From the IMG/VR virus record IMGVR_UViG_2541047946_000011: a DNA stretch of 14,368 nucleotides, one strand, 5' to 3'. The translations under genes were made by a program, and so were the position numbers. Below the pieces are notes generated by a model that had not been told where the DNA came from, searched no databases, and worked only from the letters and a program-made list of their open reading frames with translations. Each line of letters begins with the position of its first letter. Within the stretch, counting starts at the first letter, position 1. Of this stretch, positions 1 through 14,368 are shown in pieces. Source of the stretch: a virus. Its lineage: Duplodnaviria > Heunggongvirae > Uroviricota > Caudoviricetes.

Positions 1-1074
1 CCGGGCCATGATTATTATTTTTACGTTCGCAGTGTGAACACCGTTGGCAAATCGGCATTCGTGGAGGCCGTCGGTCGGGCGAGCGATGATGCGGAAGGTT
101 ACCTGGATTTTTTCAAAGGCCAGATAACCGAATCCCATCTCGGCAAGGAGCTGCTGGAAAAAGTCGAGCTGACGGAGGATAACGCCAGCAAACTGGAGGA
201 GTTTTCGAAAGAGTGGAAGGACGCCAACGATAAATGGAATGCCATGTGGGGCGTCAAAATTGAGCAGACCAAAGACGGCAAACATTATGTCGCGGGGCTT
301 GGCCTCAGCATGGAGGATACGGAGGAAGGCAAACTGAGCCAGTTCCTGGTTGCCGCTAACCGTATCGCGTTTATTGACCCGGCAAACGGGAATGAAACGC
401 CGATGTTTGTGGCGCAGGGCAACCAGATATTCATGAACGAAGTGTTCCTGAAGTATCTGACGGCTCCCACCATTACCAGTGGCGGTAATCCTCCGGCATT
501 TTCCCTGACACCGGACGGGCGGCTGACGGCGAGAAATGCTGATATCAGCGGTAACGTGAATGCGAACTCCGGGACGCTCAATAATGTCACGGTAAATGAA
601 AACTGTACGATTAAGGGCATGCTGGAGGCGAACCAGGTCAGAGGTGACTTCGTTAAAACTGTATCCAAATCATTCCCGAAAAAGGCTGGTACGTGGGGTA
701 ACACGGAAACACCAAACGGGACGGTTACAGTCACCATTTACGATGATCATAACTTTGACCGCCAAATCATTATTCCGCCCATTATTTTTAACGGTGTGGC
801 GTATGACGATCCGGGGAGCGGTAATAACCCGGGAGGTACGCGATACACGGGTTATGGTTTTGAAGTTCGCAAAAATGGCGTATTAATCGCATCCAGAGAA
901 ACTAAAGGAGCCATTCCCGGTAGTTACAGTGCGGTTATTGATATGCCGAGTGGTGGTGGTAACGTCACTCTGGAGTTTAAGATTTTCCAGAAAGGCAATC
1001 AGGGCGCAGGTAACATCACAGACTGTACGGTGATTGTGACCAAAAAAGCTGCTTCCGGTATCAGTATCCGTTGA
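1..1074 (+). CDS. J: Tail tip host-specificity protein J, C-terminal portion (5' end lies outside the window)
   Basis: Frame 1 is open from base 1 ([25 protein letters not shown]...) to TGA at 1072-1074; the ATG at 34 is internal. The translation matches lambda J C-terminal region as I remember it ([48 protein letters not shown]...), with the last ~130 aa (receptor-binding part) diverging from lambda. Confidence 0.85.
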
Positions 1075-4446: not shown

Positions 4447-4537
4447 TAGACTGGCCCCCTGAATCACCAGACAACCAATATCACTTATTTAAGTGATAGT
4501 CTTAATACTAGTTTTTAGGCTAGTCATTGGAGAGCAG

Positions 4538-4903
4538 ATGATTGATGTCTTAGGACCGGAGAAACGCAGACGGCGTACCACACAGGAAAAGATCGCAATT
4601 GTTCAGCAGAGCTTTGAACCAGGGATGACGGTCTCCCTCGTTGCCCGGCAACATGGTGTAGCAGCCAGCCAGTTATTTCTCTGGCGTAAGCAATACCAGG
4701 AAGGAAGTCTTACTGCTGTCGCCGCCGGAGAACAGGTTGTTCCTGCCTCTGAACTTGCTGCCGCCATGAAGCAGATTAAAGAACTCCAGCGCCTGCTCGG
4801 CAAGAAAACGATGGAAAATGAACTCCTCAAAGAAGCCGTTGAATATGGACGGGCAAAAAAGTGGATAGCGCACGCGCCCTTATTGCCCGGGGATGGGGAG
4901 TAA
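4538..4903 (+). CDS. insC: IS2 transposase OrfA (InsC)
   Basis: [56 protein letters not shown]... is recognisably IS2 InsC. ATG at 4538 with GGAG at 4529-4532. The track ORF from 4493 includes IS-end sequence upstream of the real start. Confidence 0.9.
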
Positions 4904-5766
4904 GCTTAGTCAGCCGTTGTCTCCGGGTGTCGCGTGCGCAGTTGCACGTCATTCTCAGACGAACCGATGACTGGATGGATGGCCGCCGCAGTCGTCACAC
5001 TGATGATACGGATGTGCTTCTCCGTATACACCATGTTATCGGAGAGCTGCCCACGTATGGTTATCGTCGGGTATGGGCGCTGCTTCGCAGACAGGCAGAA
5101 CTTGATGGTATGCCTGCGATCAATGCCAAACGTGTTTACCGGATCATGCGCCAGAATGCGCTGTTGCTTGAGCGAAAACCTGCTGTACCGCCATCGAAAC
5201 GGGCACATACAGGCAGAGTGGCTGTGAAAGAAAGTAATCAGCGATGGTGCTCTGACGGGTTCGAGTTCCGCTGTGATAACGGAGAAAAACTGCGAGTCAC
5301 GTTCGCGCTGGACTGCTGTGACCGTGAGGCACTGCACTGGGCGGTCACTACGGGCGGCTTCAACAGTGAAACAGTACAGGACGTCATGCTGGGAGCGGTG
5401 GAACGCCGCTTCGGCAACGAGCTTCCGGCGTCTCCAGTAGAGTGGCTGACGGATAATGGTTCATGCTACCGGGCTAATGAAACACGGCAGTTTGCCCGGA
5501 TGTTGGGGCTTGAACCGAAGAGCACGGCGGTGCGGAGTCCGGAGAGTAACGGCATAGCAGAGAGCTTCGTGAAAACGATAAAGCGTGACTACATCAGTGT
5601 CATGCCCAAACCAGACGGGTTAACGGCAGCAAAGAACCTTGCAGAGGCGTTCGAGCATTATAACGAATGGCATCCGCATAGTGCACTGGGTTATCGCTCG
5701 CCACGGGAATATCTACGGCAGCAAGCCAGTAATGGGTTAAGTGATAACAGGTGTCTGGAAATATAG
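4861..5766 (+). CDS. insD: IS2 transposase OrfB (InsD; DDE integrase domain, normally made as an InsCD fusion by -1 frameshift)
   Basis: [77 protein letters not shown]... is recognisably IS2 InsD. It overlaps insC in the -1 frame; slippery AAAAAAG lies at about 4854-4860. Confidence 0.9.
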
Positions 5767-5777
5767 GGGCAAATCCA

Positions 5778-5782
5778 CCAGA
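5778..5782. repeat. IS2 target-site duplication, right copy (CCAGA)
   Basis: Identical to 4442-4446. Confidence 0.8.
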
Positions 5783-6119
5783 CCTCTGACCGAGACCTGA
5801 AAGATAATATTCAGGTGATTGATAATGCAACCAATCGCATCCGTAAGATGAATGGTTATACATACACGCTTAAAGAAAACGGGATGCCTTACGCTGGTGT
5901 TATCGCACAGGAAGCCTTAGAAGCAATTCCAGAGTCCGTAGGCTCTACGATAAAATATAGGGACGGTGGTAGCGGATCTGAAGGCGAAGAAGGTGAACGG
6001 TATTACACTGTAGATTATTCTGGTGTTACTGGCTTGCTTGTTCAGGTAGCCAGAGAGTCAGACGACAGGATAACAGCACTGGAAGAAGAAAACGCAGAAT
6101 TAAGACAAAGATTATCTGC

Positions 6120-6127
6120 AATTGAGG
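6120..6127. repeat. IS66-family target-site duplication, left copy (AATTGAGG)
   Basis: The 8-bp AATTGAGG immediately precedes the GTAAGCGT terminus at 6128 and recurs at 8660-8667 after the opposite terminus. An 8-bp duplication is typical of the IS66 family. Confidence 0.75.
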
Positions 6128-6212
6128 GTAAGCGTAAACTGACCGCCGTATGTAGCCATCAGACGAGAATTGGTAACTTAGACGCCCATCTGATATAGAC
6201 GGACATCTAAGT

Positions 6213-6638
6213 ATGGAATTACAGGACTGGCGAAAAGAACCTCGTAAAAACTATTCGAATGAATTCAAACTTCGTATGGTGGAACTGGCATCACAACCTG
6301 GAGCTTGTGTTGCACAGATTGCACGTGAAAATGGCGTCAATGATAATGTTATTTTCAAATGGCTCAGGCTCTGGCAGAACGAAGGGCGTGTTTCGCGGCG
6401 TCTTCCGGTAACGACCTCTTCTGACACTGGCGTTGAATTATTACCTGTAGAAATAACGCCGGATGAGCAGAAAGAACCTGTGGCGGCCATTGCGCCGTCT
6501 TTATCCACTTCCACTCAGACCAGAGTCAGTGCCAGTTCCTGCAAGGTGGAATTCCGTCACGGTAACATGACGCTGGAAAATCCATCGCCAGAGCTGCTCA
6601 CAGTGTTGATCCGTGAACTGACCGGGAGGGGAAGATGA
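6213..6638 (+). CDS. tnpA: IS66-family accessory protein TnpA (orf1)
   Basis: MELQDWRKEPRKNYSNEFKLRMVELASQPGACVAQIARENGVNDNVIFKWLRLW... is typical IS66 orf1; its stop overlaps the tnpB start. Confidence 0.85.
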   Translation: MELQDWRKEPRKNYSNEFKLRMVELASQPGACVAQIARENGVNDNVIFKWLRLWQNEGRVSRRLPVTTSSDTGVELLPVEITPDEQKEPVAAIAPSLSTSTQTRVSASSCKVEFRHGNMTLENPSPELLTVLIRELTGRGR

Positions 6639-6985
6639 TCTCACTCCCATCAGGTACCCGTATCTGGCTCGTTGCCGGCGTTACCGATATGCGTAAATCC
6701 TTCAACGGACTGGGAGAACAGGTACAACATGTGCTGAATGATAATCCCTTCTCCGGTCACCTGTTTATCTTCCGTGGCCGACGGGGTGACACCGTCAAAA
6801 TTCTTTGGGCTGATGCTGATGGTCTGTGCCTGTTCACCAAACGCCTGGAGGAAGGCCAGTTTATCTGGCCTGCGGTACGTGACGGCAAGGTATCCATTAC
6901 CCGCTCGCAACTGGCAATGCTCCTCGATAAGCTGGACTGGCGTCAGCCAAAAACATCCAGCCGTAACTCACTGACAATGTTGTAA
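6635..6985 (+). CDS. tnpB: IS66-family accessory protein TnpB (orf2)
   Basis: MISLPSGTRIWLVAGVTDMRKSFNGLGEQVQHVLNDNPFSGHLFIFRGRRGDTVKILWADADGLCLFTKRLE... is the highly conserved IS66 orf2. Confidence 0.9.
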   Translation: MISLPSGTRIWLVAGVTDMRKSFNGLGEQVQHVLNDNPFSGHLFIFRGRRGDTVKILWADADGLCLFTKRLEEGQFIWPAVRDGKVSITRSQLAMLLDKLDWRQPKTSSRNSLTML

Positions 6986-7015
6986 AAAACTCCTGACCGC
7001 ATTATAAAAACGGTC

Positions 7016-8629
7016 ATGAGTCAGAAATACCTCATTCGCATCGCAGAGCTGGAAAGGTTGCTCTCTGAGCAGGCTGAAGCCCTCCGTCAGAAAGACCAGC
7101 AACTGAGTCTGGTTGAAGAGACGGAAGCCTTCCTGCGCTCTGCACTGACACGTGCCGAAGAAAAGATCGAAGAAGATGAACGGGAAATAGAACATCTGCG
7201 GGCTCAGATAGAAAAACTGCGCCGGATGCTGTTCGGTACCCGTTCTGAAAAACTGCGTCGTGAAGTTGAACTGGCTGAGGCTCTGCTGAAACAACGTGAA
7301 CAGGACAGCGATCGTTACAGTGGGCGGGAAGACGATCCTCAGGTTCCCCGCCAGTTGCGACAGTCGCGCCATCGTCGTCCGTTACCGGCACACCTTCCCC
7401 GTGAAATACACCGCCTGGAGCCAGAAGAAAGCTGTTGCCCGGAGTGTGGCGGTGAGCTGGATTATCTGGGGGAAGTCAGCGCTGAACAGCTGGAACTGGT
7501 GAGCAGTGCCCTGAAAGTGATCCGCACAGAACGGGTAAAAAAAGCCTGTACAAAATGTGACTGTATTGTTGAAGCACCGGCGCCGTCCCGCCCGATAGAG
7601 CGTGGTATCGCGGGCCCCGGATTACTTGCCCGCGTGTTAACGGGAAAATACTGCGAACATCTGCCACTGTATCGTCAGAGTGAAATCTTTGCCCGCCAGG
7701 GTGTCGAACTGAGCCGGGCCTTACTCTCCAACTGGGTTGACGCGTGCTGCCAGTTAATGACACCGGTGAATGATGCCCTGTACCGTTATGTAATGAACAC
7801 CCGCAAGGTTCACACTGATGACACACCGGTAAAGGTACTGGCACCGGGTCAGAAAAAGGCGAAAACAGGGCGTATCTGGACGTATGTCCGGGATGATCGC
7901 AATGTGGGTTCGTCATCTCCTCCAGCGGTCTGGTTCGCGTACTCGCCGAACCGGCAGGGGAAACACCCGGAGCAACACCTCCGCCCCTTCCGGGGTATCC
8001 TGCAGGCGGATGCGTTCACAGGTTACGACAGGTTGTTCAGTGCAGAACGTGAAGGTGGTGCACTGACAGAAGTTGCGTGCTGGGCCCATGCCCGGCGAAA
8101 AATCCACGATGTATACATCAGCAGCAAAAGTGCGACGGCAGAAGAAGCCCTGAAGCGAATCAGTGAACTGTACGCCATCGAGGATGAAATACGGGGATTA
8201 CCGGAGTCAGAGCGTCTTGCCGTCAGGCAGCAGCGAAGCAAAGTGTTACTGACGTCGCTGCATGAATGGATGGTGGAGAAGAATGGTACGCTGTCGAAAA
8301 AATCCAGACTGGGCGAAGCGTTCAGCTATGTACTGAATCAGTGGGATGCCCTCTGTTATTACAGTGATGACGGTCTGGCGGAGGCGGATAATAATGCTGC
8401 GGAAAGAGCGCTTCGTGCAGTCTGTCTCGGAAAGAAAAACTTTATGTTCTTTGGCAGCGATCACGGCGGCGAGCGTGGAGCACTGTTGTACGGGCTGATC
8501 GGCACCTGCCGTCTGAACGGTATCGATCCGGAAGCGTATCTGCGCCATATCCTGAGCGTACTGCCGGAATGGCCTTCCAACCGAGTTGACGAACTCCTGC
8601 CATGGAACGTAGTACTCACCAATAAATAA
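7016..8629 (+). CDS. tnpC: IS66-family transposase TnpC (orf3)
   Basis: 537 aa with an N-terminal coiled-coil/leucine-zipper region, a CxxC...CxxC zinc-finger-like motif (CPECGGE...CTKCDC) and a DDE-type core, as expected for IS66 transposases. Confidence 0.9.
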   Translation: MSQKYLIRIAELERLLSEQAEALRQKDQQLSLVEETEAFLRSALTRAEEKIEEDEREIEHLRAQIEKLRRMLFGTRSEKLRREVELAEALLKQREQDSDRYSGREDDPQVPRQLRQSRHRRPLPAHLPREIHRLEPEESCCPECGGELDYLGEVSAEQLELVSSALKVIRTERVKKACTKCDCIVEAPAPSRPIERGIAGPGLLARVLTGKYCEHLPLYRQSEIFARQGVELSRALLSNWVDACCQLMTPVNDALYRYVMNTRKVHTDDTPVKVLAPGQKKAKTGRIWTYVRDDRNVGSSSPPAVWFAYSPNRQGKHPEQHLRPFRGILQADAFTGYDRLFSAEREGGALTEVACWAHARRKIHDVYISSKSATAEEALKRISELYAIEDEIRGLPESERLAVRQQRSKVLLTSLHEWMVEKNGTLSKKSRLGEAFSYVLNQWDALCYYSDDGLAEADNNAAERALRAVCLGKKNFMFFGSDHGGERGALLYGLIGTCRLNGIDPEAYLRHILSVLPEWPSNRVDELLPWNVVLTNK

Positions 8630-9057: not shown

Positions 9058-9199
9058 GGATGGCTGGTGAACTTCCGATAGTGCGGGTGTTGAATGATTT
9101 CCAGTTGCTACCGATTTTACATATTTTTTGCATGAGAGGATTTGCACCTCCTCCCACCGATCCTCCATGACTTTACGCCACTGTCTCTATGGCTGCTAT

Positions 9200-9214
9200 G
9201 TGCCAGAAGCGGAC
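9200..9214. repeat. 15-bp direct repeat GTGCCAGAAGCGGAC, copy 1 (flanks the 271-aa gene)
   Basis: Exact 15-mer also at 10253-10267; the flanking bases are partially similar (TTCATTAGAT vs ATTACTAAGAT). Confidence 0.7.
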
Positions 9215-9262
9215 TTCATTAGATTCTTTGTTTTTTGTGTTAATATACTTACAATCCCATCA

Positions 9263-10078
9263 TCAACTAACAACCCAATCATCAGATAATATATCACTGA
9301 TATTGAAAATATAGGTATGGTTATTTTTACCATCTGAAATGACGATTTTTTTTAAGTTGAATCTTTCTGATATGATATGCGTTGCAAATTGTGGGATTAT
9401 TAAAAACAAAGCCTCTACCTTACTGATTAATTCAATGTTGACTTTAGGTCTGAAGTTTGCATCATGAACCACTTTGTGCCTAATGTAAAATGCTTCCTCT
9501 ATGAGGGCTCTCCAGTCTGGAAATATATTTTCTATCGATAAACCTTGGGAAATTTGGCCACTCAGACCGCAAGGAGATATATTAGTTGTACATATGTAGT
9601 TTAAAAAACTCTCACCCCACATGCCATTATATGCTTCTTCAAGGTCGTTTAAGTTTTGAAAGTTAAAGCTTTTACTCAATAACTCTGATAGATTTATCTC
9701 AGTGTTTATATTGATAGATGTTTCTGTTCTCATTTTAGATAGTAGTGTTGTAATTCTAGATTCATCAACTGAATGCACGAAAACAAAAACGTCTCTAAAA
9801 TATGTTTCCCAGCAACTGATTAGAAATACAAAATATTGTCGATATGCTGTTTTATAAATATCTATTTTCTTATCTTTCGTTGAAATAAGTGAATGCATAA
9901 GTCGACAATTTTCTGCAAAATTTAGTAGGAAAGACATTGAGAAGTCTTCTATAGCTCCTCTTGATTCGCGAAGAGATAGCAATTCATCAATAATTTTTTT
10001 ATTGATTTTCCTAATCTTTTTCAATTGCATGCCTCGTTTTTGCTTAAGTAAAGTTGATTTTGGAGTTTCGTCAATCAT
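9263..10078 (-). CDS. Hypothetical 271-aa protein, strongly AT-rich; HEPN-like Rx4H motif (possible Abi-like RNase)
   Basis: Long minus-strand ORF, visibly lower GC than its neighbours, Lys/Ile/Asn-rich. Contains ...EEAFYIRHKVVHDANF... (R-x4-H) in the C-terminal half. No other family recognised by eye. Confidence 0.6.
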   Translation of the reverse strand: MIDETPKSTLLKQKRGMQLKKIRKINKKIIDELLSLRESRGAIEDFSMSFLLNFAENCRLMHSLISTKDKKIDIYKTAYRQYFVFLISCWETYFRDVFVFVHSVDESRITTLLSKMRTETSININTEINLSELLSKSFNFQNLNDLEEAYNGMWGESFLNYICTTNISPCGLSGQISQGLSIENIFPDWRALIEEAFYIRHKVVHDANFRPKVNIELISKVEALFLIIPQFATHIISERFNLKKIVISDGKNNHTYIFNISDILSDDWVVS

Positions 10079-10252
10079 GTTATCTTATTAGATTTAAAGA
10101 TAAAGTCACTTTTTGCATAAGCTTTGCGACAAAGATAGCTTTAATGAAAGGCCTTATAGAGCTACTTGGCCATAAAAATTTTTACGATGAATTCGAATTC
10201 AGCGTCCGCTCCTCGCTTAAAGCTGTCCTTGGGCCTAACCTACGATAGCTTC

Positions 10253-10267
10253 GTGCCAGAAGCGGAC
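10253..10267. repeat. 15-bp direct repeat GTGCCAGAAGCGGAC, copy 2
   Basis: Exact copy of 9200-9214, lying inside the 476-bp gap between the 374-aa and 271-aa genes. Confidence 0.7.
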
Positions 10268-10554
10268 ATTACTAAGATAGTAACGTATCAAACGGTGGGA
10301 CAAGTCATGCCAAGTGCGGAAGTGGCTAACAACCATCTGTGTTGTTTAACGGGGAACAGGTCATTCCATTGACCCGATCATTTATGTTGCGCTGACGCTT
10401 AGGTGATAAAAAGCCGCCTATGCCCGTCTATCTTTGGGGATCCGCAATGAAGTTGATTGTGAGGTTATTAGGCTAGGTCTTCTCATTTATAAGTTGTTGA
10501 AGTAGCAACGAATTATCGAGCGATTTATCCCGATTAAATGTCTCACTATTACTC

Positions 10555-11679
10555 TTAATCGGTAAATTCATAGTTTGGCCGCATTGAGAAACGCCACAGA
10601 GGCAGGCCTCCCCCTTTGTAATCATCAGGGATGGTTACCGTGAAAAGTCTGACATTCTGCCGGGTGTCAACTGACCTGATCTGGCTGTCGTGTACAGTCT
10701 GCTCGTTAAAGGCCGACGTGACCAGCGAACTCAGCGTACCTATAAAGTCGAAACCCTGTCTTTTGTAATTTTCGTCGTCTTCCGGGGAAAATGTGTATCG
10801 GATGCTCTCAAGCTGACCATCAGTGAATATTGCCTCCGATCCGGGGCAGAGCCACTCTCCGTAGCGCATCAGATGAAACGCCGTGTTCATTTCAAATTTA
10901 TCCGTTACTTGTCTGTCATTGCAGTAAATTTTAATCTCGCCAATTGTAAAATGGGCGATGCCTTCGGGACTAACTGAAACTTCTTTGGTCCGGTCGGGGA
11001 TAAGCTCAAAAACCAGATCGGGTTCTGTTGCTATCGATAGGTCGCCCAGCAGGTACATCTCACTTTTTGCGAGCGCCGAGGCCGGCGTCAAGGTATGTTC
11101 ACGCTCTAGCTCCTTCATTGAGGAGCGTGCAACCAGCGCCCACCGGCGCAGCATCCTGATGTAGATGGCATAATAAACTGGAATACCATGGAGCTCACCG
11201 TACTTTTCAACCTTATCACTGTACGATTTCTTCAGGCGATAATCGTCAGCCACGTCATCCGCGTTAAAGTTTTTTACTTCCACAAAGATCTGACGGCGAT
11301 CCTTCAGTATAATGCGATAGTCAGGTGCCACCAGATCGGGATCGGCTGACATCAAGTCTCCGGCGTCTTCCTGTTTAAGAAACTGGCAGTGGTTCAGTGC
11401 GGCGCAAACGTGTTTAAATAGGTTTTCTATTCTTTTCCCGTTCAGCAGAATTGGATTCTGATGGGAAGCGATTAATGACGTGGTGACCTTTTGTATAAAG
11501 TCATCCTGGTGCTCGGGGTTTTTAATATCGTAATTATAGATCTGGCCCAACGAGGAAAAAAGCTCAAAGGCTTCAAATCGTTCGGGATTCCTCTTGATTC
11601 TTTCCATTAATGACTCCGCAGCTAATAAATACAACGAAATGAGATCACTTGTTTCTCTGAAGTTACCTGAAAACTGCAT
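10555..11679 (-). CDS. Hypothetical 374-aa protein with a PD-(D/E)xK nuclease-like motif (candidate defense effector)
   Basis: Minus-strand ORF starting 69 bp downstream of the FRG gene stop. Contains ...LVAPDYRIILKDRRQIFVEVKNFNADD..., i.e. a D in a hydrophobic strand followed 15 residues later by E-V-K, the spacing and context of restriction-endonuclease-fold active sites. No strong Shine-Dalgarno before the first ATG, so the start is uncertain. Confidence 0.7.
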   Translation of the reverse strand: MQFSGNFRETSDLISLYLLAAESLMERIKRNPERFEAFELFSSLGQIYNYDIKNPEHQDDFIQKVTTSLIASHQNPILLNGKRIENLFKHVCAALNHCQFLKQEDAGDLMSADPDLVAPDYRIILKDRRQIFVEVKNFNADDVADDYRLKKSYSDKVEKYGELHGIPVYYAIYIRMLRRWALVARSSMKELEREHTLTPASALAKSEMYLLGDLSIATEPDLVFELIPDRTKEVSVSPEGIAHFTIGEIKIYCNDRQVTDKFEMNTAFHLMRYGEWLCPGSEAIFTDGQLESIRYTFSPEDDENYKRQGFDFIGTLSSLVTSAFNEQTVHDSQIRSVDTRQNVRLFTVTIPDDYKGGGLPLWRFSMRPNYEFTD

Positions 11680-11748
11680 TCTGCACGGCGATTAAAGCGG
11701 CTATGGGCCCACGCTGGCACACAGGCGTGCCGTGCGACTAAAGCGCTA

Positions 11749-13119
11749 TCAGATTCGTCCATCGTATAGTTTTGCAATTTCCGTAGCAGCCTTCTCAATG
11801 CCGGGGTACACCGTGCTTTCGTTAATGCCAAGGCGGCTCAGTTGCTGCATCAGATGCTCTTTGTTTCTAATAACAAGCTTTTTGATGTTCAGCGTACTGA
11901 GTCCCGTTTCCGGTAGGTCTACGTTTTCACCAAAGAGCAGGAAAGCGCCTGATTGGGACGAAATACGTGCGTTACTGAGCCTACCTTTGACCACAACAAT
12001 TTTACTTAGGTGGACCGGATCGATGATGCTTTTGAAATAGGACTTTTCATCGCGGATCAGGTGTAGTAGTTGTCCGCACTCTTCAGATTCGTTAAACGCC
12101 GGAATGGTGAGATTAGTTTTCAGGCTGCTTTTGAAACGAGAGGGAAGACGGGAAAGATTGGCTATGCAACTTACGGTATCCGAGTCGAAAAACTTAATTT
12201 CACTTTTGGGCGTCGTCAGAATAATGACGTTCCCGTCAATTTCATGATTATTTTCATCGTGCTTGATTTTAGAGCAGGCAAAATATAGTGCGATCAAGGG
12301 GTTTGTTGATACATCAAGCAGGCGTGTGGGTAGGCCATAGTGTTGCATGCGCACGAGTTTATCTAGCATATACCGATCGTCTTTGAACTCGGCGGGCTGC
12401 ACGGTCAGCAGCTCTGTTATCATGTCCGATTCGTGATGGCGGTAGCGATAGTTACCCTGAGTATCCTTGCGGAACAGTGAGGGTTCCAGTTGGTAGCTGA
12501 TGTCCGAGTGACCGCGGTAAAATACCTCTTCATCGTTTCCCTGTGTATGATCGAGTATCACCTGCAAGTACTGATTGATATTCGCAATGATCTCTAGTTC
12601 TTCATTATTCTCCGGTGCTTCCGCACTCGCTGTTGCGGGCTCAACATTAGAATAGCCTTCAAGGCCTAAAACACGCAGAATCTCATTTACGGAAATCTCT
12701 TTGACCGCCCAGAACGTTCTGTTTAGTCCGAAACTGCCCAGCTCCAGCTCACTTACGTACTCTTTATCGCTGGTTAAGGGCTTGTAGCCGATATCACTGG
12801 TAATCTCATAATCAAACGCTAAAACTTTTTCTCTGTTATACACGGACGTACTTATCTTGCTGATTTTTCCTAAGCGGATGTGGCTGAAATAACCTATTTT
12901 TTCATTATCTTCATCGAATTCAATTTCCGGCTCGGACATAAATACAACGGGCAGTTCCTGAAGAAAATGATAGGTTTTTTCAGTCAGGGGAAGCAATCTG
13001 CTTCTAAGAGACTCTGGCGTGGATTCGAAGAGTCGCGACACAGGGAAAGAGTCATTGCCACTGGGTTCAGAAAAAAAAGTGTAGTATTTGGGGGTTCCGA
13101 CAACGATAAGATTCAGCAT
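11749..13119 (-). CDS. Hypothetical 456-aa protein with an FRG domain (candidate defense sensor/partner), first gene of the minus-strand pair
   Basis: Contains FYRGHSDISYQLEPSLFRK, ...MQHYGLPTRLLDVSTNPLIALYFAC and ...NARISSQSGAFLLFG, which match the FRG-domain hallmark motifs as I remember them. The N-terminal ~190 aa are unrecognised. GAGGA lies 8 nt upstream of the ATG at 13119. Confidence 0.75.
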   Translation of the reverse strand: MLNLIVVGTPKYYTFFSEPSGNDSFPVSRLFESTPESLRSRLLPLTEKTYHFLQELPVVFMSEPEIEFDEDNEKIGYFSHIRLGKISKISTSVYNREKVLAFDYEITSDIGYKPLTSDKEYVSELELGSFGLNRTFWAVKEISVNEILRVLGLEGYSNVEPATASAEAPENNEELEIIANINQYLQVILDHTQGNDEEVFYRGHSDISYQLEPSLFRKDTQGNYRYRHHESDMITELLTVQPAEFKDDRYMLDKLVRMQHYGLPTRLLDVSTNPLIALYFACSKIKHDENNHEIDGNVIILTTPKSEIKFFDSDTVSCIANLSRLPSRFKSSLKTNLTIPAFNESEECGQLLHLIRDEKSYFKSIIDPVHLSKIVVVKGRLSNARISSQSGAFLLFGENVDLPETGLSTLNIKKLVIRNKEHLMQQLSRLGINESTVYPGIEKAATEIAKLYDGRI

Positions 13120-13596
13120 ACTTGCGATCCTCGCATAAGTTAAGTTTCTCTCTCATCATGCCAGACTTGATAATTATTTAAACATCAGCGCTGCTATTTA
13201 TATTTCACACCTTTTTGATCCGAAACGACACTGCCATCGGTAAGCCCGGATGATACATTCTGAAAATTCATCAGAAAAATTTACATCACGCTTTACTCCT
13301 GACGTATATCAGCACTAACGTGCCATTGCGCACGCGCTAGCTATTTAGTAGCGCGTTTCGGCGAAAAGAGATTCGGTAGTCAATGACTATATTTCGCTCA
13401 TAACAGACATTCACTACAGTTGTGGCAGAAAGGTATGCATGCTGGGTGTGGGGAAGTCGTGAAAGAAAAGAAGACTGCTTCGCCGTTTGTCGTCACTGCT
13501 ATCTTCTTATTGCTTATGAAGGTCGTAGTGGGGCACACAAAGCTTTGCACTGGATTGCAAGGCGTTGTGCTTCTCTTGAGTGCGACATGTTTTTAT

Positions 13597-13640: not shown

Positions 13641-13809
13641 TGCTCTGTTACAGGTCACTAATATCATCTAAGTAGTTGATTCATAGTGACTGCATATGTT
13701 GTGTTTTGGAGTATTATGCAGTCTATCATTTAGACTAAAACTCTCATAACACACTGATATTAATGATTTTTACTGTTTATCGTTCAGCTTTTTTATACTA
13801 ACTTGAGCG
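13641..13809 (+). other. attR (P arm, core, B'): lambda-type attachment site; core GCTTTTTTATACTAA at 13787-13801
   Basis: The P arm (CTGTTACAGGTCACTAATATCATCTAAGTAGTTGATTCATAGTGACTGCATATGTTGTGTT) closely matches the lambda attP P arm, including arm-type Int-site-like GGTCACTAAT and AGTGACTGCAT. The 15-bp core is identical to lambda. The right flank CTTGAGCGAAACG is the bacterial attB B' side. Confidence 0.85.
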
Positions 13810-13891: not shown

Positions 13892-14368
13892 TTAACTAAA
13901 CATCGCAGTAATCGAGGCGCTTGCCAGAGAGTGGAAATGAACGTTAAACCCGACCATCGCGCCGCTGGCACCTTCATCGACATCAATACGTTCTATATCC
14001 AGCGCGTGAACGGTAAAAATGTAGCGATGAGTTTCGCCTTTCGGCGGTGCTGCGCCATCGTACCCGGTTTTACCAAAGTCGGTACGCGTCTGCAAAACGC
14101 CGTCTGGCATTGCTACCAGACCAGAGCCAAACCCTTGCGGTAATACGCGGGTATCAGCGGGTAAGTTAACAACTACCCAGTGCCACCAGCCGGAGCCGGT
14201 TGGCGCATCCGGGTCGTAGCAGGTGACAACAAAACTTTTCGTTCCCGCAGGAACATCATCCCACGCCAGATGCGGTGAAATATTATCGCCATCGTAACCC
14301 ATGCCGTTAAAGACATGACGATGCGGCAATTTATCGCCATCGCGCAGATCGTTACTGATGAGTTTCAT
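13892..14368 (-). CDS. ybhB: PEBP-family protein YbhB (UPF0098 / kinase-inhibitor-like), host chromosomal gene next to attB-lambda
   Basis: Complete 158-aa minus-strand ORF (MKLISNDLRDGDKLPHRHVFNGMGYDGDNISPHLAWDDVPAGTKSFVVTCYDPDAPTGSGWWHWVVVNLPADTR...). Its start codon is the last three bases of the window. Recognised as E. coli YbhB, whose chromosomal position beside the lambda attachment site agrees with the attR call. Confidence 0.85.
   Translation of the reverse strand: MKLISNDLRDGDKLPHRHVFNGMGYDGDNISPHLAWDDVPAGTKSFVVTCYDPDAPTGSGWWHWVVVNLPADTRVLPQGFGSGLVAMPDGVLQTRTDFGKTGYDGAAPPKGETHRYIFTVHALDIERIDVDEGASGAMVGFNVHFHSLASASITAMFS

Follow-up and report, generated by a model that had tools for sequence, protein, structure and literature searches.

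A minus-strand cargo gene at the end of a lambda-like prophage of E. coli, in the b region between the tail-fibre genes and attR, probably encodes a stand-alone ribonuclease of the RiboL-PSP-HEPN family, a self-contained and mobile single-gene unit that would act in abortive-infection defence. The gene lies in a 14,368-nt stretch of viral DNA (IMG/VR record IMGVR_UViG_2541047946_000011), referred to here as the window. Structure modelling and conservation show a predicted HEPN fold with R-H-x3-H and E-x3-R at the canonical positions, and the distribution of homologues shows that the gene is mobile between integron cassette arrays, prophage cargo sites, and defence islands. From solo HEPN defence proteins described elsewhere, we infer by analogy that the protein is an RNase with a role in abortive infection.

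An AT-rich gene in the prophage b region

The ORF list and its translation contain the 271-aa minus-strand reading frame at 9263-10078, with an ATG at 10078, that an initial annotation of this DNA had reported, and RefSeq holds this ORF as hypothetical protein WP_021572745.1. Residues are numbered throughout from that ATG. A TTG at 10024-10022 is the probable start of the gene, giving a protein of 253 aa, because a GAGG lies 7 nt upstream, homologues begin there, TTG is likewise the start codon of the homologue at locus L008, and GenBank gives a 253-aa CDS for the PhiR11_1 phage copy (Table 1). The L008 homologue, which is 79% identical, shares the GAGG-N7-TTG arrangement, and its upstream ATG runs straight into a TAA. 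The gap to the next minus-strand ORF, initially given as 476 bp, has that length for the ATG start (10079-10554) but widens to 530 bp with the likely TTG start.

Table 1. Positions of the HEPN gene, its predicted elements, and surrounding features in the window
Feature	Position	Strand	Details
HEPN protein CDS	9263..10024	-	253 aa from the probable TTG start; maximal ORF to the ATG at 10078, 271 aa
Shine-Dalgarno-like GAGG	10032..10035	-	7 nt upstream of the TTG start; read from sequence
E91-T-Y-F-R95 codons	9794..9808	-	Ex3[KR] of HEPN helix 2; predicted to play an auxiliary part in the active site
N139-F140-Q141 codons	9656..9664	-	Family-specific conserved motif in the ~85-residue insert between helices 2 and 3
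R200-H201-K-V-V-H205 codons	9464..9481	-	Predicted catalytic Rx4H motif, end of HEPN helix 3; from sequence, conservation, and model
C-terminal tail, residues 245-271	9266..9346	-	Beta strand and short helix; model elements E253-257 and H260-264
Left copy of 27-nt direct repeat	9195..9221	.	Exact core of 15 nt, GTGCCAGAAGCGGAC, at 9200-9214; bounds the AT-rich block on the left
Right copy of 27-nt direct repeat	10248..10274	.	Core at 10253-10267; right edge of the AT-rich block
350-aa neighbour cargo gene	10555..11607	-	PD-(D/E)xK, Hjc-like nuclease; context, outside the HEPN unit
456-aa neighbour cargo gene	11749..13119	-	FRG domain, matches PADLOC candidate PDC-S15; context, outside the HEPN unit
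Lambda att core GCTTTTTTATACTAA (attR)	13787..13801	+	Prophage end; ybhB beyond

The AT-richness noted earlier is pronounced, with a GC content of 0.315 (GC3 0.276) for the HEPN ORF compared to 0.469 and 0.452 for the neighbouring genes (GC3 0.50-0.54), and the flanks containing IS66 and ybhB reach 0.52-0.55. The AT-rich block spans approximately 9222 to 10200 and is bracketed by the two copies of a 27-nt direct repeat, which enclose a ~1.05-kb module with the HEPN gene as its sole gene; similarity to other lambdoid prophages ends at ~9213. The protein contains 11.8% Ile, 10.0% Leu, 9.6% Ser, 7.4% Lys, and 7.0% Asn, and its description as Lys/Ile/Asn-rich stands for isoleucine, with leucine also high, but not for lysine and asparagine, which are merely moderate.

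The position and orientation of the gene are those of the lambda leftward b-region genes, and the same site in another E. coli prophage holds genes of the lambda ea47/ea31/ea59 type. In the window, the slots usually taken by ea47, ea31, and ea59 contain three unrelated single-gene candidates, namely the putative HEPN RNase, a PD-(D/E)xK nuclease, and an FRG/PDC-S15 protein. The 350-aa gene and the FRG gene are each found alone elsewhere, the latter in 18 E. coli genomes. In this strain, IS3 and IS66 have inserted into the tail-fibre region of the prophage, and the cargo may therefore have left the selection that shaped it. A scan of the upstream gap revealed no sigma-70-like promoter on the minus strand, and no intrinsic terminator was found. 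In a lysogen the b region is cut off from pL, so that expression of the gene there is not assured. The 476-nt gap folds modestly better than its shuffles (z -2.5).

Sequenced phages PhiR11_1 and PhiR11_1_star carry the gene at 100% identity. Among 28 E. coli genomes, the listed copies are at least 99.6% identical with an intact ORF, and one E. coli strain shows a 1-nt length difference and a 293-aa variant ORF. Comparison with the 79%-identical L008 homologue yields a dN/dS of 0.18; the coding sequence is under purifying selection.

Conserved motifs and a predicted HEPN fold

The HEPN superfamily is defined by Rx4-6H, which lies where helix 3 ends or where the loop to helix 4 begins and whose arginine is followed by a polar N, D, or H, and by a conserved acidic residue in helix 2, typically within Ex3[KR]; its members are metal-independent endoribonucleases whose composite site forms through dimerisation (PMC3710099). 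The proposal of an HEPN-like protein had started from RHKVVH, which lies at residues 200-205 and thus in the C-terminal half, as described, and it came with the caution that one short motif is weak evidence. That caution was well placed: Rx4-6H matches occur in 58% of composition-preserving shuffles of the protein, a second match in the same protein (R95-H102) is due to chance, and the stricter pattern R[NDH]x3H still arises in 3.75% of shuffles. The motif is meaningful only through its conservation and the fold in which it sits.

Both are consistent with an HEPN active site. Among 218 family members, R200 is retained in 200 of 202 aligned sequences, H201 in 197/202, and H205 in 202/203, placing the arginine, the polar histidine that follows it, and the final histidine in at least 97% of members. 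The helix-2 glutamate is equally constant (E91 in 198/199), and position 95 is arginine or lysine in 193/199. The insert contains a further motif, NFQ, invariant in alignment A1, with Q141 in 201/205 and F140 in 191/205 family members. In a single-chain AlphaFold2 model (pLDDT 81.6, pTM 0.79), RHxxxH closes helix 189-205, with both R and H at its C-terminal end, while ExxxR falls within helix 69-102, and the ~85-residue insert separates the two. Model and alignment agree in assigning E91-T-Y-F-R95 to the Ex3[KR] position of helix 2. The modelled layout of both motifs and the insert is the published HEPN layout (PMC3710099), which argues for HEPN identity.

Profile searches point the same way and bear out the HEPN-like reading of the motif. 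Pfam domain PF18735 (HEPN_RiboL-PSP) matches residues 58-221 of the window protein at E 7.6e-6 and 26.4 bits, 2 bits short of the gathering threshold of 28.4 bits. The same domain is matched by 26 of 30 homologues at E below 0.01 (best E 6.8e-12), and several homologues, at 50-55% identity, exceed that threshold with 34-36 bits. By these profile scores the family as a whole belongs to PF18735, with the window sequence alone just below the threshold. Searches of other collections matched no described defence protein: PADLOC-DB v2 gave zero families at E up to 1, and PHROGs and NCBIfam gave no match. A sequence-profile search of the PDB returned chance-level matches alone, for example T4 beta-glucosyltransferase at E 0.03.

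A mobile family of solo genes

Far from being the orphan it was first called, the gene has homologues in 71 clusters, with 448 representatives at 50% identity. The family proteins are solo and 220-290 aa in length, and their genes have a GC content of 0.29-0.37 in every host, irrespective of host GC, in agreement with the horizontal acquisition initially suggested.

Several homologues are integron cassettes. Such cassettes are bounded by attC sites, with an R'' box (..AAC) after the stop codon, an imperfect hairpin, and an R' box (GTT..). The flanks at loci L010, L012, L015, and L036 fold as attC sites do (z -1.9 to -4.3), and attC sites were also recognised by sequence for homologues in L016, L018, and L035-L037. 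In the L010 cassette, the distance to the upstream attC is ~15 nt from the start codon, and the downstream attC lies 3 nt beyond the stop codon; the gene nearly fills the cassette, so that neither a second gene nor a sizeable RNA can fit. The window flanks (9165-9262 and 10225-10345) are not attC-like in fold (z 0.40 and -0.68), and a scan found no attC-like site beside the window gene. Thus the 27-nt direct repeats were ruled out as attC remnants, as neither flank folds as the attC sites of the homologues do.

Other homologues occupy a range of sites. In Proteus the gene is found beside DUF4238, HNH, and Thoeris genes, and in Tolumonas beside NACHT, AbiGi, and Shedu-type genes. Others are encoded beside TIR genes, another beside CBASS genes, one is a moron in a P2-like prophage, and some sit between housekeeping genes. 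A tblastn search of a plasmid collection returned no match to the HEPN gene, and no Vibrio homologue was present among the matches listed. Both integron cassettes (bioRxiv 10.1101/2024.07.02.601686) and prophage accessory loci (PMC13043305) are documented reservoirs of small defence genes. The locus illustrates how defence cargo moves, with the same 0.8-kb gene occurring as an environmental integron cassette, as a moron of P2-like and lambda-like prophages, and as a defence-island gene.

No conserved partner gene or flanking RNA

Potential partners were sought among ORFs within three genes on either side of homologues at 24 loci, which were compared by all-against-all BLASTP, and 83 neighbour proteins were searched against Pfam. 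Scattered TIR genes aside, no neighbour family is conserved across these 24 other loci; when duplicate contigs are disregarded, a single TIR protein pair is the sole shared neighbour. A shared ancestry of the HEPN-ThsB pairs of Proteus and Parashewanella was rejected, as no similarity could be detected between the ThsB proteins of the two (E 1.0). The HEPN gene was likewise rejected as a third subunit of the FRG/nuclease genes, given that no neighbour recurs in the 24 loci. The alternative favoured at the outset, an independent single-gene element, agrees with this absence of a conserved neighbour, with the single-gene cassettes of the homologues, and with the separate occurrence of the FRG and 350-aa genes elsewhere.

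Nor did RNA elements emerge. The single tandem repeat at the gene comprises two copies of a 19-nt unit at the stop codon and does not resemble an antitoxin array, the gene has no Rfam match, and the 150-nt stretches on either side of 12 homologues yielded no consensus RNA structure. Together these searches show that the HEPN gene has no conserved partner gene or flanking RNA.

Comparison with described HEPN systems

RiboL-PSP-HEPN (PF18735; Anantharaman et al. 2013, PMC3710099) is the sole Pfam family matched by the window protein, which shares its Rx4H with a polar residue after the arginine and its Ex3[KR]. The family was described from endoRNase L-PSP fusions or from operons with ParB (PMC3710099), whereas the present subfamily is solo, begins with an N-terminal helix, carries NFQ within its insert, and ends in a beta-alpha tail. 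Fusions were not seen among family members, and neither ParB nor L-PSP is among the families listed for the 83 neighbour proteins. Our literature search found no experimental study of the RiboL-PSP-HEPN family, including as a tested defence system, and no paper on phage PhiR11_1.

The best functional analogue appears to be HepS, a solo HEPN abortive-infection protein of Salmonella prophage Gifsy-1 (PMC13043305). Like the present gene, it encodes a single prophage HEPN protein from a lambdoid accessory-gene locus with a canonical Rx4H and no partner or inhibitor gene (PMC13043305). Sequence homology between the two proteins was not found. Resting HepS, with R100 and H105 about 17 A apart, exemplifies the distant histidines of an autoinhibited HEPN. 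DARNA (PD-T7-3) and ApeA are stand-alone HEPN anticodon nucleases that are inactive until infection and then cleave tRNA (bioRxiv 10.64898/2026.02.22.705581). DARNA is a 456-aa protein that forms a dodecamer and has a large ssDNA-sensing C-terminal domain; the 253-aa window protein contains no comparable sensor domain, and it finds no match to either system in PADLOC at E up to 1, although the 2023 release postdates their papers.

Type VII HepT-MNT systems differ in that their MNT nucleotidyltransferase gene adjoins neither the window gene nor any homologue at the 24 loci, and a minimal HepT is about half the size of the present protein. The single-gene Abi proteins AbiD and AbiF (Abi_2) are distant relatives of the RiboL-PSP-HEPN family (PMC3710099). 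The window protein matches PF18735 alone, with no match to Pfam Abi_2 at E up to 10, and no AbiF-type RNA antitoxin element was found upstream of its gene. By description, the present gene may also be likened to HEPN-type cassettes of the Vibrio cholerae superintegron such as Esos and Taranis, which are small, comprise one HEPN-like gene, and act against phages; relatives of those cassette systems are also known from prophages and other mobile elements outside integrons (bioRxiv 10.1101/2024.07.02.601686). Homologues of the present gene are integron cassettes as well, and the window copy has no attC sites.

Proposed function and alternative explanations

The gene most likely encodes an abortive-infection defence toxin, by analogy with the solo HEPN defence proteins HepS, DARNA (PD-T7-3), and ApeA, from which each step of the following mechanism is drawn. 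The protein would assemble into dimers or larger oligomers, with two Rx4H motifs building a composite, metal-independent RNase site, and this site would be autoinhibited in uninfected cells, the oligomeric state and the autoinhibition being proposed purely by analogy. A product or structure of an infecting phage would switch the site on, and the activated RNase would cut cellular RNA, most probably tRNA anticodon loops or mRNA. Translation arrest would follow and the infection would be aborted, guarding both the lysogen population and the prophage.

It is unlikely that the RNase instead serves the phage lytic cycle. In that case, once the phage is induced or infects, N-antiterminated transcription from pL would cross int and attP and reach the b region, as happens for lambda ea59, ea31, and ea47, and the RNase would act against a host defence or break down RNA of the host or of competitors. 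Its leftward b-region position and orientation, the lack of a promoter of its own in the upstream scan, and a weak likeness of its C-terminal tail to the phage anti-Thoeris protein Tad2 speak for this role. However, most homologues are found outside phages, in integron arrays, in defence islands, and between housekeeping genes, where a lytic role makes no sense, and the lambda b region is dispensable cargo. The prophage solo HEPN genes assayed so far also act in host defence (PMC13043305). A toxin-antitoxin or addiction toxin, neutralised by an unrecognised small protein or RNA antitoxin and serving mainly to stabilise a prophage or integron array, is quite improbable. HEPN toxins are often paired with an antitoxin, as in HepT-MNT, and the antitoxin of AbiF is an RNA (bioRxiv 10.64898/2026.02.22.705581); AbiD and AbiF are the distant relatives noted above (PMC3710099), and toxin-antitoxin cassettes are the commonest defence-type cassettes of chromosomal integrons (bioRxiv 10.1101/2024.07.02.601686). 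Against such a pair stand the absence of an MNT gene or other conserved neighbour at the 24 loci, the absence of an antitoxin-like repeat array, Rfam match, or conserved flanking structure, and the nearly filled L010 cassette.

The Tad2-like tail also raises the possibility, which we regard as very doubtful, of an effector gated by a second messenger, in which a nucleotide signal such as gcADPR or a cyclic oligonucleotide, produced by TIR or CD-NTase enzymes encoded elsewhere, would bind to the tail, perhaps with the insert's beta hairpin taking part, and so turn on the HEPN RNase. Tad2 (DUF2829) is an anti-Thoeris sponge with a ligand pocket, and the part of it that is matched (beta4 and alpha3) lines that pocket (bioRxiv 10.1101/2023.05.01.538930). 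Matches to the C-terminal half of PF11195 (Tad2-like) recur among homologues, with E below 0.01 for 6 of the 30 members (best 1.2e-4) and scores of 15-21 bits, short of the gathering threshold of 25; in 4 of ~24 loci a TIR, ThsB, or NDT-like gene is at most two genes away from the homologue, a CD-NTase adjoins it in one further locus, and Csm6 offers a precedent for a signal-gated HEPN (bioRxiv 10.64898/2026.02.22.705581). More speculative still is the idea that the tail is a minimal nucleotide-signal sensor and the 253-aa protein a free-standing orphan effector, tapping the TIR or CD-NTase signals of other systems and travelling alone as an integron cassette or prophage moron; this would account for the repeated position of the gene beside Thoeris, TIR, and CBASS genes. 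However, the matched stretch spans only 27-39 residues and always falls under the Pfam threshold, the window protein itself has no Tad2-like match, and neither the window nor most other loci contain a TIR or CD-NTase gene. The neighbouring Thoeris and CBASS systems each encode an effector already (ThsA_Macro and Cap15, respectively), and the two ThsB neighbours are mutually unrelated, which is what chance placement in defence islands and integron arrays would produce. Hardest of all to credit is that the gene is a HEPN remnant, non-catalytic or in decay, that now lacks a function: the IS elements interrupting the prophage in this strain and the 293-aa variant ORF, with its 1-nt length difference, would fit decay, but the catalytic residues are near-universal in the family, dN/dS is 0.18, and the ORF is intact in the listed copies among the 28 genomes and in the two phage genomes.

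The abortive-infection RNase proposed here is of a well-known HEPN kind, encoded by a real and conserved gene, and is nothing new in kind; present concepts are unchanged by it, and it is a good candidate rather than a surprise. If phage protection were shown, it would add one more minimal solo HEPN abortive-infection protein to HepS, DARNA, ApeA, AbiV, and similar proteins, and the solo RiboL-PSP-HEPN branch would gain its first functional assignment. The family is also small and tractable, and the carrier PhiR11_1 is a sequenced lambda-like phage whose record names E. coli K-12 as host.

An AT-rich cargo gene encodes a conserved HEPN protein

The 271-aa ORF (numbering used here; referred to as the HEPN gene) was confirmed on the minus strand, as were its 476-bp separation from the next gene and its AT-richness, with a GC content of 0.315 (GC3 0.276) relative to 0.45–0.47 in the two neighbouring genes and 0.52–0.55 in the flanks. 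Translation probably starts at a TTG at 10024, giving 253 aa, rather than at the annotated ATG at 10078. GAGG lies 7 nt 5′ of this TTG, homologues start at the same position, and the GenBank annotation in phage PhiR11_1 is also 253 aa long. The homologue at L008 (L numbers denote genomic loci compared with the window) is 79% identical and uses the same TTG, its upstream ATG being followed directly by TAA; dN/dS between the two genes is 0.18.

The initial annotation had proposed a HEPN RNase from an R-HKVV-H motif, which is present at residues 200–205. On its own this motif is weak evidence, because Rx4-6H arises in 58% of shuffles of the protein and R95–H102 provides a second match by chance. 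The HEPN assignment was supported by profile, conservation and structure analyses. The sole Pfam match is HEPN_RiboL-PSP (E 7.6e-6; 26.4 bits vs a gathering threshold of 28.4), a model matched by 26 of 30 homologues, several at 34–36 bits. Residues R200, H201, H205, D206, E91, T92, R95, D96, and N139-F140-Q141 are invariant in a 30-sequence alignment, and conservation extends across 218 members (R200 in 200/202, H201 in 197/202, H205 in 202/203, E91 in 198/199, and R/K at 95 in 193/199), including Bacteroidota and Firmicutes sequences that keep the same motifs at only 27–30% identity. The AlphaFold2 model (pLDDT 81.6, pTM 0.79) is mostly helical, with RHxxxH at the C-terminal end of helix 189–205, E91xxxR95 in helix 69–102, and an insert of ~85 residues between them. 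This layout matches the published HEPN domain, in which Rx4-6H ends helix 3, its R followed by a polar N, D, or H, helix 2 carries an acidic Ex3[KR] motif, and an insert separates the two helices (PMC3710099). Searches of the PDB by sequence and, with the model, by Foldseek returned no match. The HEPN identity of the product is near certain and its predicted catalytic competence likely; the active-site constellation is conserved in a solo protein under purifying selection.

Within the HEPN superfamily, the protein is placed in HEPN_RiboL-PSP at the level of the family as a whole, its own score being 2 bits under the threshold. HEPN_RiboL-PSP was first described with an L-PSP fusion and a ParB operon, both absent here. 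The protein falls outside HepS, HepT-MNT, Abi_2, and all PADLOC-modelled systems.

The gene occupies a swappable prophage cargo slot

The window covers the right end of a lambda-like prophage inserted at the lambda attachment site of E. coli. Side tail-fibre genes follow gene J, and since IS3 and IS66-family (ISEc23) elements break this region, the prophage is probably defective in this strain. In PhiR11_1, the tail-fibre arrangement is intact and an IS2 lies near att instead.

Features of the window and of compared loci
Feature	Coordinates	Strand	Remarks
Tail-tip gene J	34-1074		
IS3-family/IS66-family (ISEc23) insertions	about 4500-8629		L001 6672-11530
Small conserved phage gene	8715-9017		phrog_1443; precedes the three cargo genes
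27-nt direct repeat	9195-9221; 10248-10274		15-nt exact core GTGCCAGAAGCGGAC at 9200-9214 and 10253-10267
Counterpart of lambda b-region site	about 9214-13400		Cargo slot
19-nt tandem duplication	9247-9284		Two copies, 84% match
HEPN gene	9263-10078	-	
C-terminal tail	9266-9346	-	Residues 245-271
Start-codon region	10022-10078	-	
PD-(D/E)xK nuclease gene	10555-11607	-	
FRG gene	11749-13119	-	
Lambda att core	13787-13801		GCTTTTTTATACTAA, exact match
Host ybhB	13892-14368		
FDAARGOS_1249 homologue	L002 6097-6978		
FRG gene copy	L034 4003-5373		Beside tRNA-Thr
Tolumonas homologue	L010 8001-8753		
attC-like hairpins (58-60 nt)	L010 7929-7986; 8757-8816		Flank the Tolumonas homologue

All three cargo genes recur in the sequenced phages PhiR11_1 and PhiR11_1_star, located between the tail-fibre genes and the end with the integrase, and the HEPN genes there are 100% identical to that of the window; this cargo region corresponds to the b region of lambda. 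At the equivalent ybhB-adjacent site, E. coli WG1 (L032) instead encodes a hypothetical protein, an HNH endonuclease, and an AAA ATPase, in the arrangement of lambda ea47/ea31/ea59. Cargo at this site can therefore be exchanged. Of 5426 complete E. coli genomes, exactly 28 contain all three cargo genes, and the cargo is near-identical in sequence in every one. These genomes evidently carry one and the same prophage, so the co-occurrence is uninformative on function.

Copies of a 27-nt direct repeat sit at the edges of a ~1-kb AT-rich block in which the HEPN gene is the sole gene, and the left copy coincides with the end of homology to other lambdoid prophages. The repeat looks like a module junction; its interpretation as an attC remnant was rejected, as the window copy has no attC sites at its flanks.

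A single-gene module moves among phages, integrons, and defence islands

Although initially described as an orphan, the gene has 71 homologue clusters in a word-indexed search, most already labelled Pfam PF18735. When 1.84 billion representatives were searched exhaustively with a profile, 448 were recovered at E≤1e-3, 169 at ≤1e-10, and 69 at ≤1e-30, nearly all of 220–290 aa or fragments. The family is small and patchily distributed across Enterobacterales, marine Gammaproteobacteria, Desulfobacterota, Planctomycetota, Campylobacterota, Bacteroidota, and Firmicutes. Gene GC is 0.29–0.37 in every host, in loci of 0.36–0.54, a uniformity that fits repeated horizontal transfer and agrees with the acquisition suggested in the initial annotation.

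Outside the prophage, the genomic contexts of homologues all differ from one another. They include a Proteus defence island with DUF4238, HNH_2, ThsB, and ThsA_Macro genes; an Enterobacter kobei P2-like prophage, where the gene is flanked by baseplate gene V and tail gene S; a Tolumonas array that also carries NACHT, AbiGi, and SduA_C genes; a Parashewanella element with TIR genes; a site adjoining a CBASS pair (CD-NTase and Cap15); and an Anaerohalosphaeraceae copy alone among housekeeping genes. When ORFs up to three genes away on each side were clustered over 24 loci, the sole neighbours to recur were one pair of TIR proteins, and only TIR and ThsB_TIR appeared more than once in a Pfam scan of 83 neighbours. 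Searches for a tandem-repeat antitoxin, an Rfam match, and a conserved flanking structure, the last over 150 nt on either side of 12 homologues, were all negative. The neighbours in the window are likewise independent; PADLOC assigns the FRG gene to candidate system PDC-S15 (E 7e-99), and a 76% identical copy stands alone in 18 E. coli genomes. The HEPN gene is thus a self-contained single-gene module, as had been suspected, and it moves among cargo sites of phages, integrons, and defence islands.

Several environmental genomes carry the homologue as a genuine integron cassette. The hairpins flanking the Tolumonas gene belong to a regular array of ~60-nt attC sites at gene boundaries. Compared with shuffles, candidate attC sites show far better folding at L010 and L015 (z −3.9 to −4.3) and moderately better folding at L012 and L036 (z −2.0 and −1.9), with TAAC:GTTA pairing at the hairpin base in L010 and L012, while L016, L018, and L035–L037 have a GTTATAT (R′) box 5′ of the gene or an ATATAAC (R″) box 3′. 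Cassette homologues (attC ATATAAC ... GTTATAT) were found in Tolumonas, Thalassomonas, Woeseiaceae, Saprospiraceae, and metagenomic contigs. As an integron cassette is a unit of one gene without a promoter, these occurrences argue strongly that the protein acts on its own. Cassettes have also been documented as a store of small genes directed against phages, some of them HEPN-like (bioRxiv 10.1101/2024.07.02.601686).

Predicted function and alternatives

By analogy with HepS, DARNA (PD-T7-3), and ApeA (the latter two described in bioRxiv 10.64898/2026.02.22.705581), a defence role is plausible. HepS, a solo HEPN encoded by prophage Gifsy-1, is expressed constitutively without toxicity as an autoinhibited tetramer, which the siphovirus tail-tip protein J activates to cut tRNA anticodon loops (PMC13043305). 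In the HEPN protein, two Rx4H motifs would form a composite metal-independent RNase site, inactive until triggered by an infecting phage; the activated enzyme would then cleave tRNA or mRNA, and the arrest of translation would abort the infection. We moderately favour this full reading as a solo abortive-infection RNase. Literature searches found no experimental work on the HEPN_RiboL-PSP family, and the gene, which adds one predicted solo HEPN defence-type RNase to a kind already known, is a good experimental candidate.

The gene might instead serve the phage's own lytic cycle. This stays a rival reading because a promoter scan of the window found none upstream of the gene, and in lambda, transcription from pL reaches the b-region genes only once the prophage has excised. 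A further alternative concerns the C-terminal 27–39 residues of many members (consensus PYIFsxxDILaxDWxvv; P0028, P0050, P0046, P0009, and other homologues), which give recurrent sub-threshold matches to the C-terminal half of Tad2-like/DUF2829 proteins (15–21 bits vs a threshold of 25; best E 1.2e-4). In Tad2, an anti-Thoeris sponge, that half contributes β4 and α3 to the gcADPR pocket (bioRxiv 10.1101/2023.05.01.538930), and 5 of about 25 loci have TIR-type (TIR, ThsB) or CD-NTase genes close to the homologue. The tail could accordingly sense a nucleotide signal, but the adjoining systems come with effectors of their own, and the ThsB proteins encoded beside two of the homologues are not related to each other. 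We assign this a low probability; gene proximity and tail matches alike could be due to chance in defence-rich arrays.

The stop codon of the HEPN gene falls within the tandem duplication, and the last codons (DDWVVS-stop) are partly duplicated just 3′ of it. E. coli FDAARGOS_1249 has a 1-nt length difference in this region and an annotated ORF of 293 aa vs 271; its copy is the only one that RefSeq names 'HEPN domain-containing protein'.
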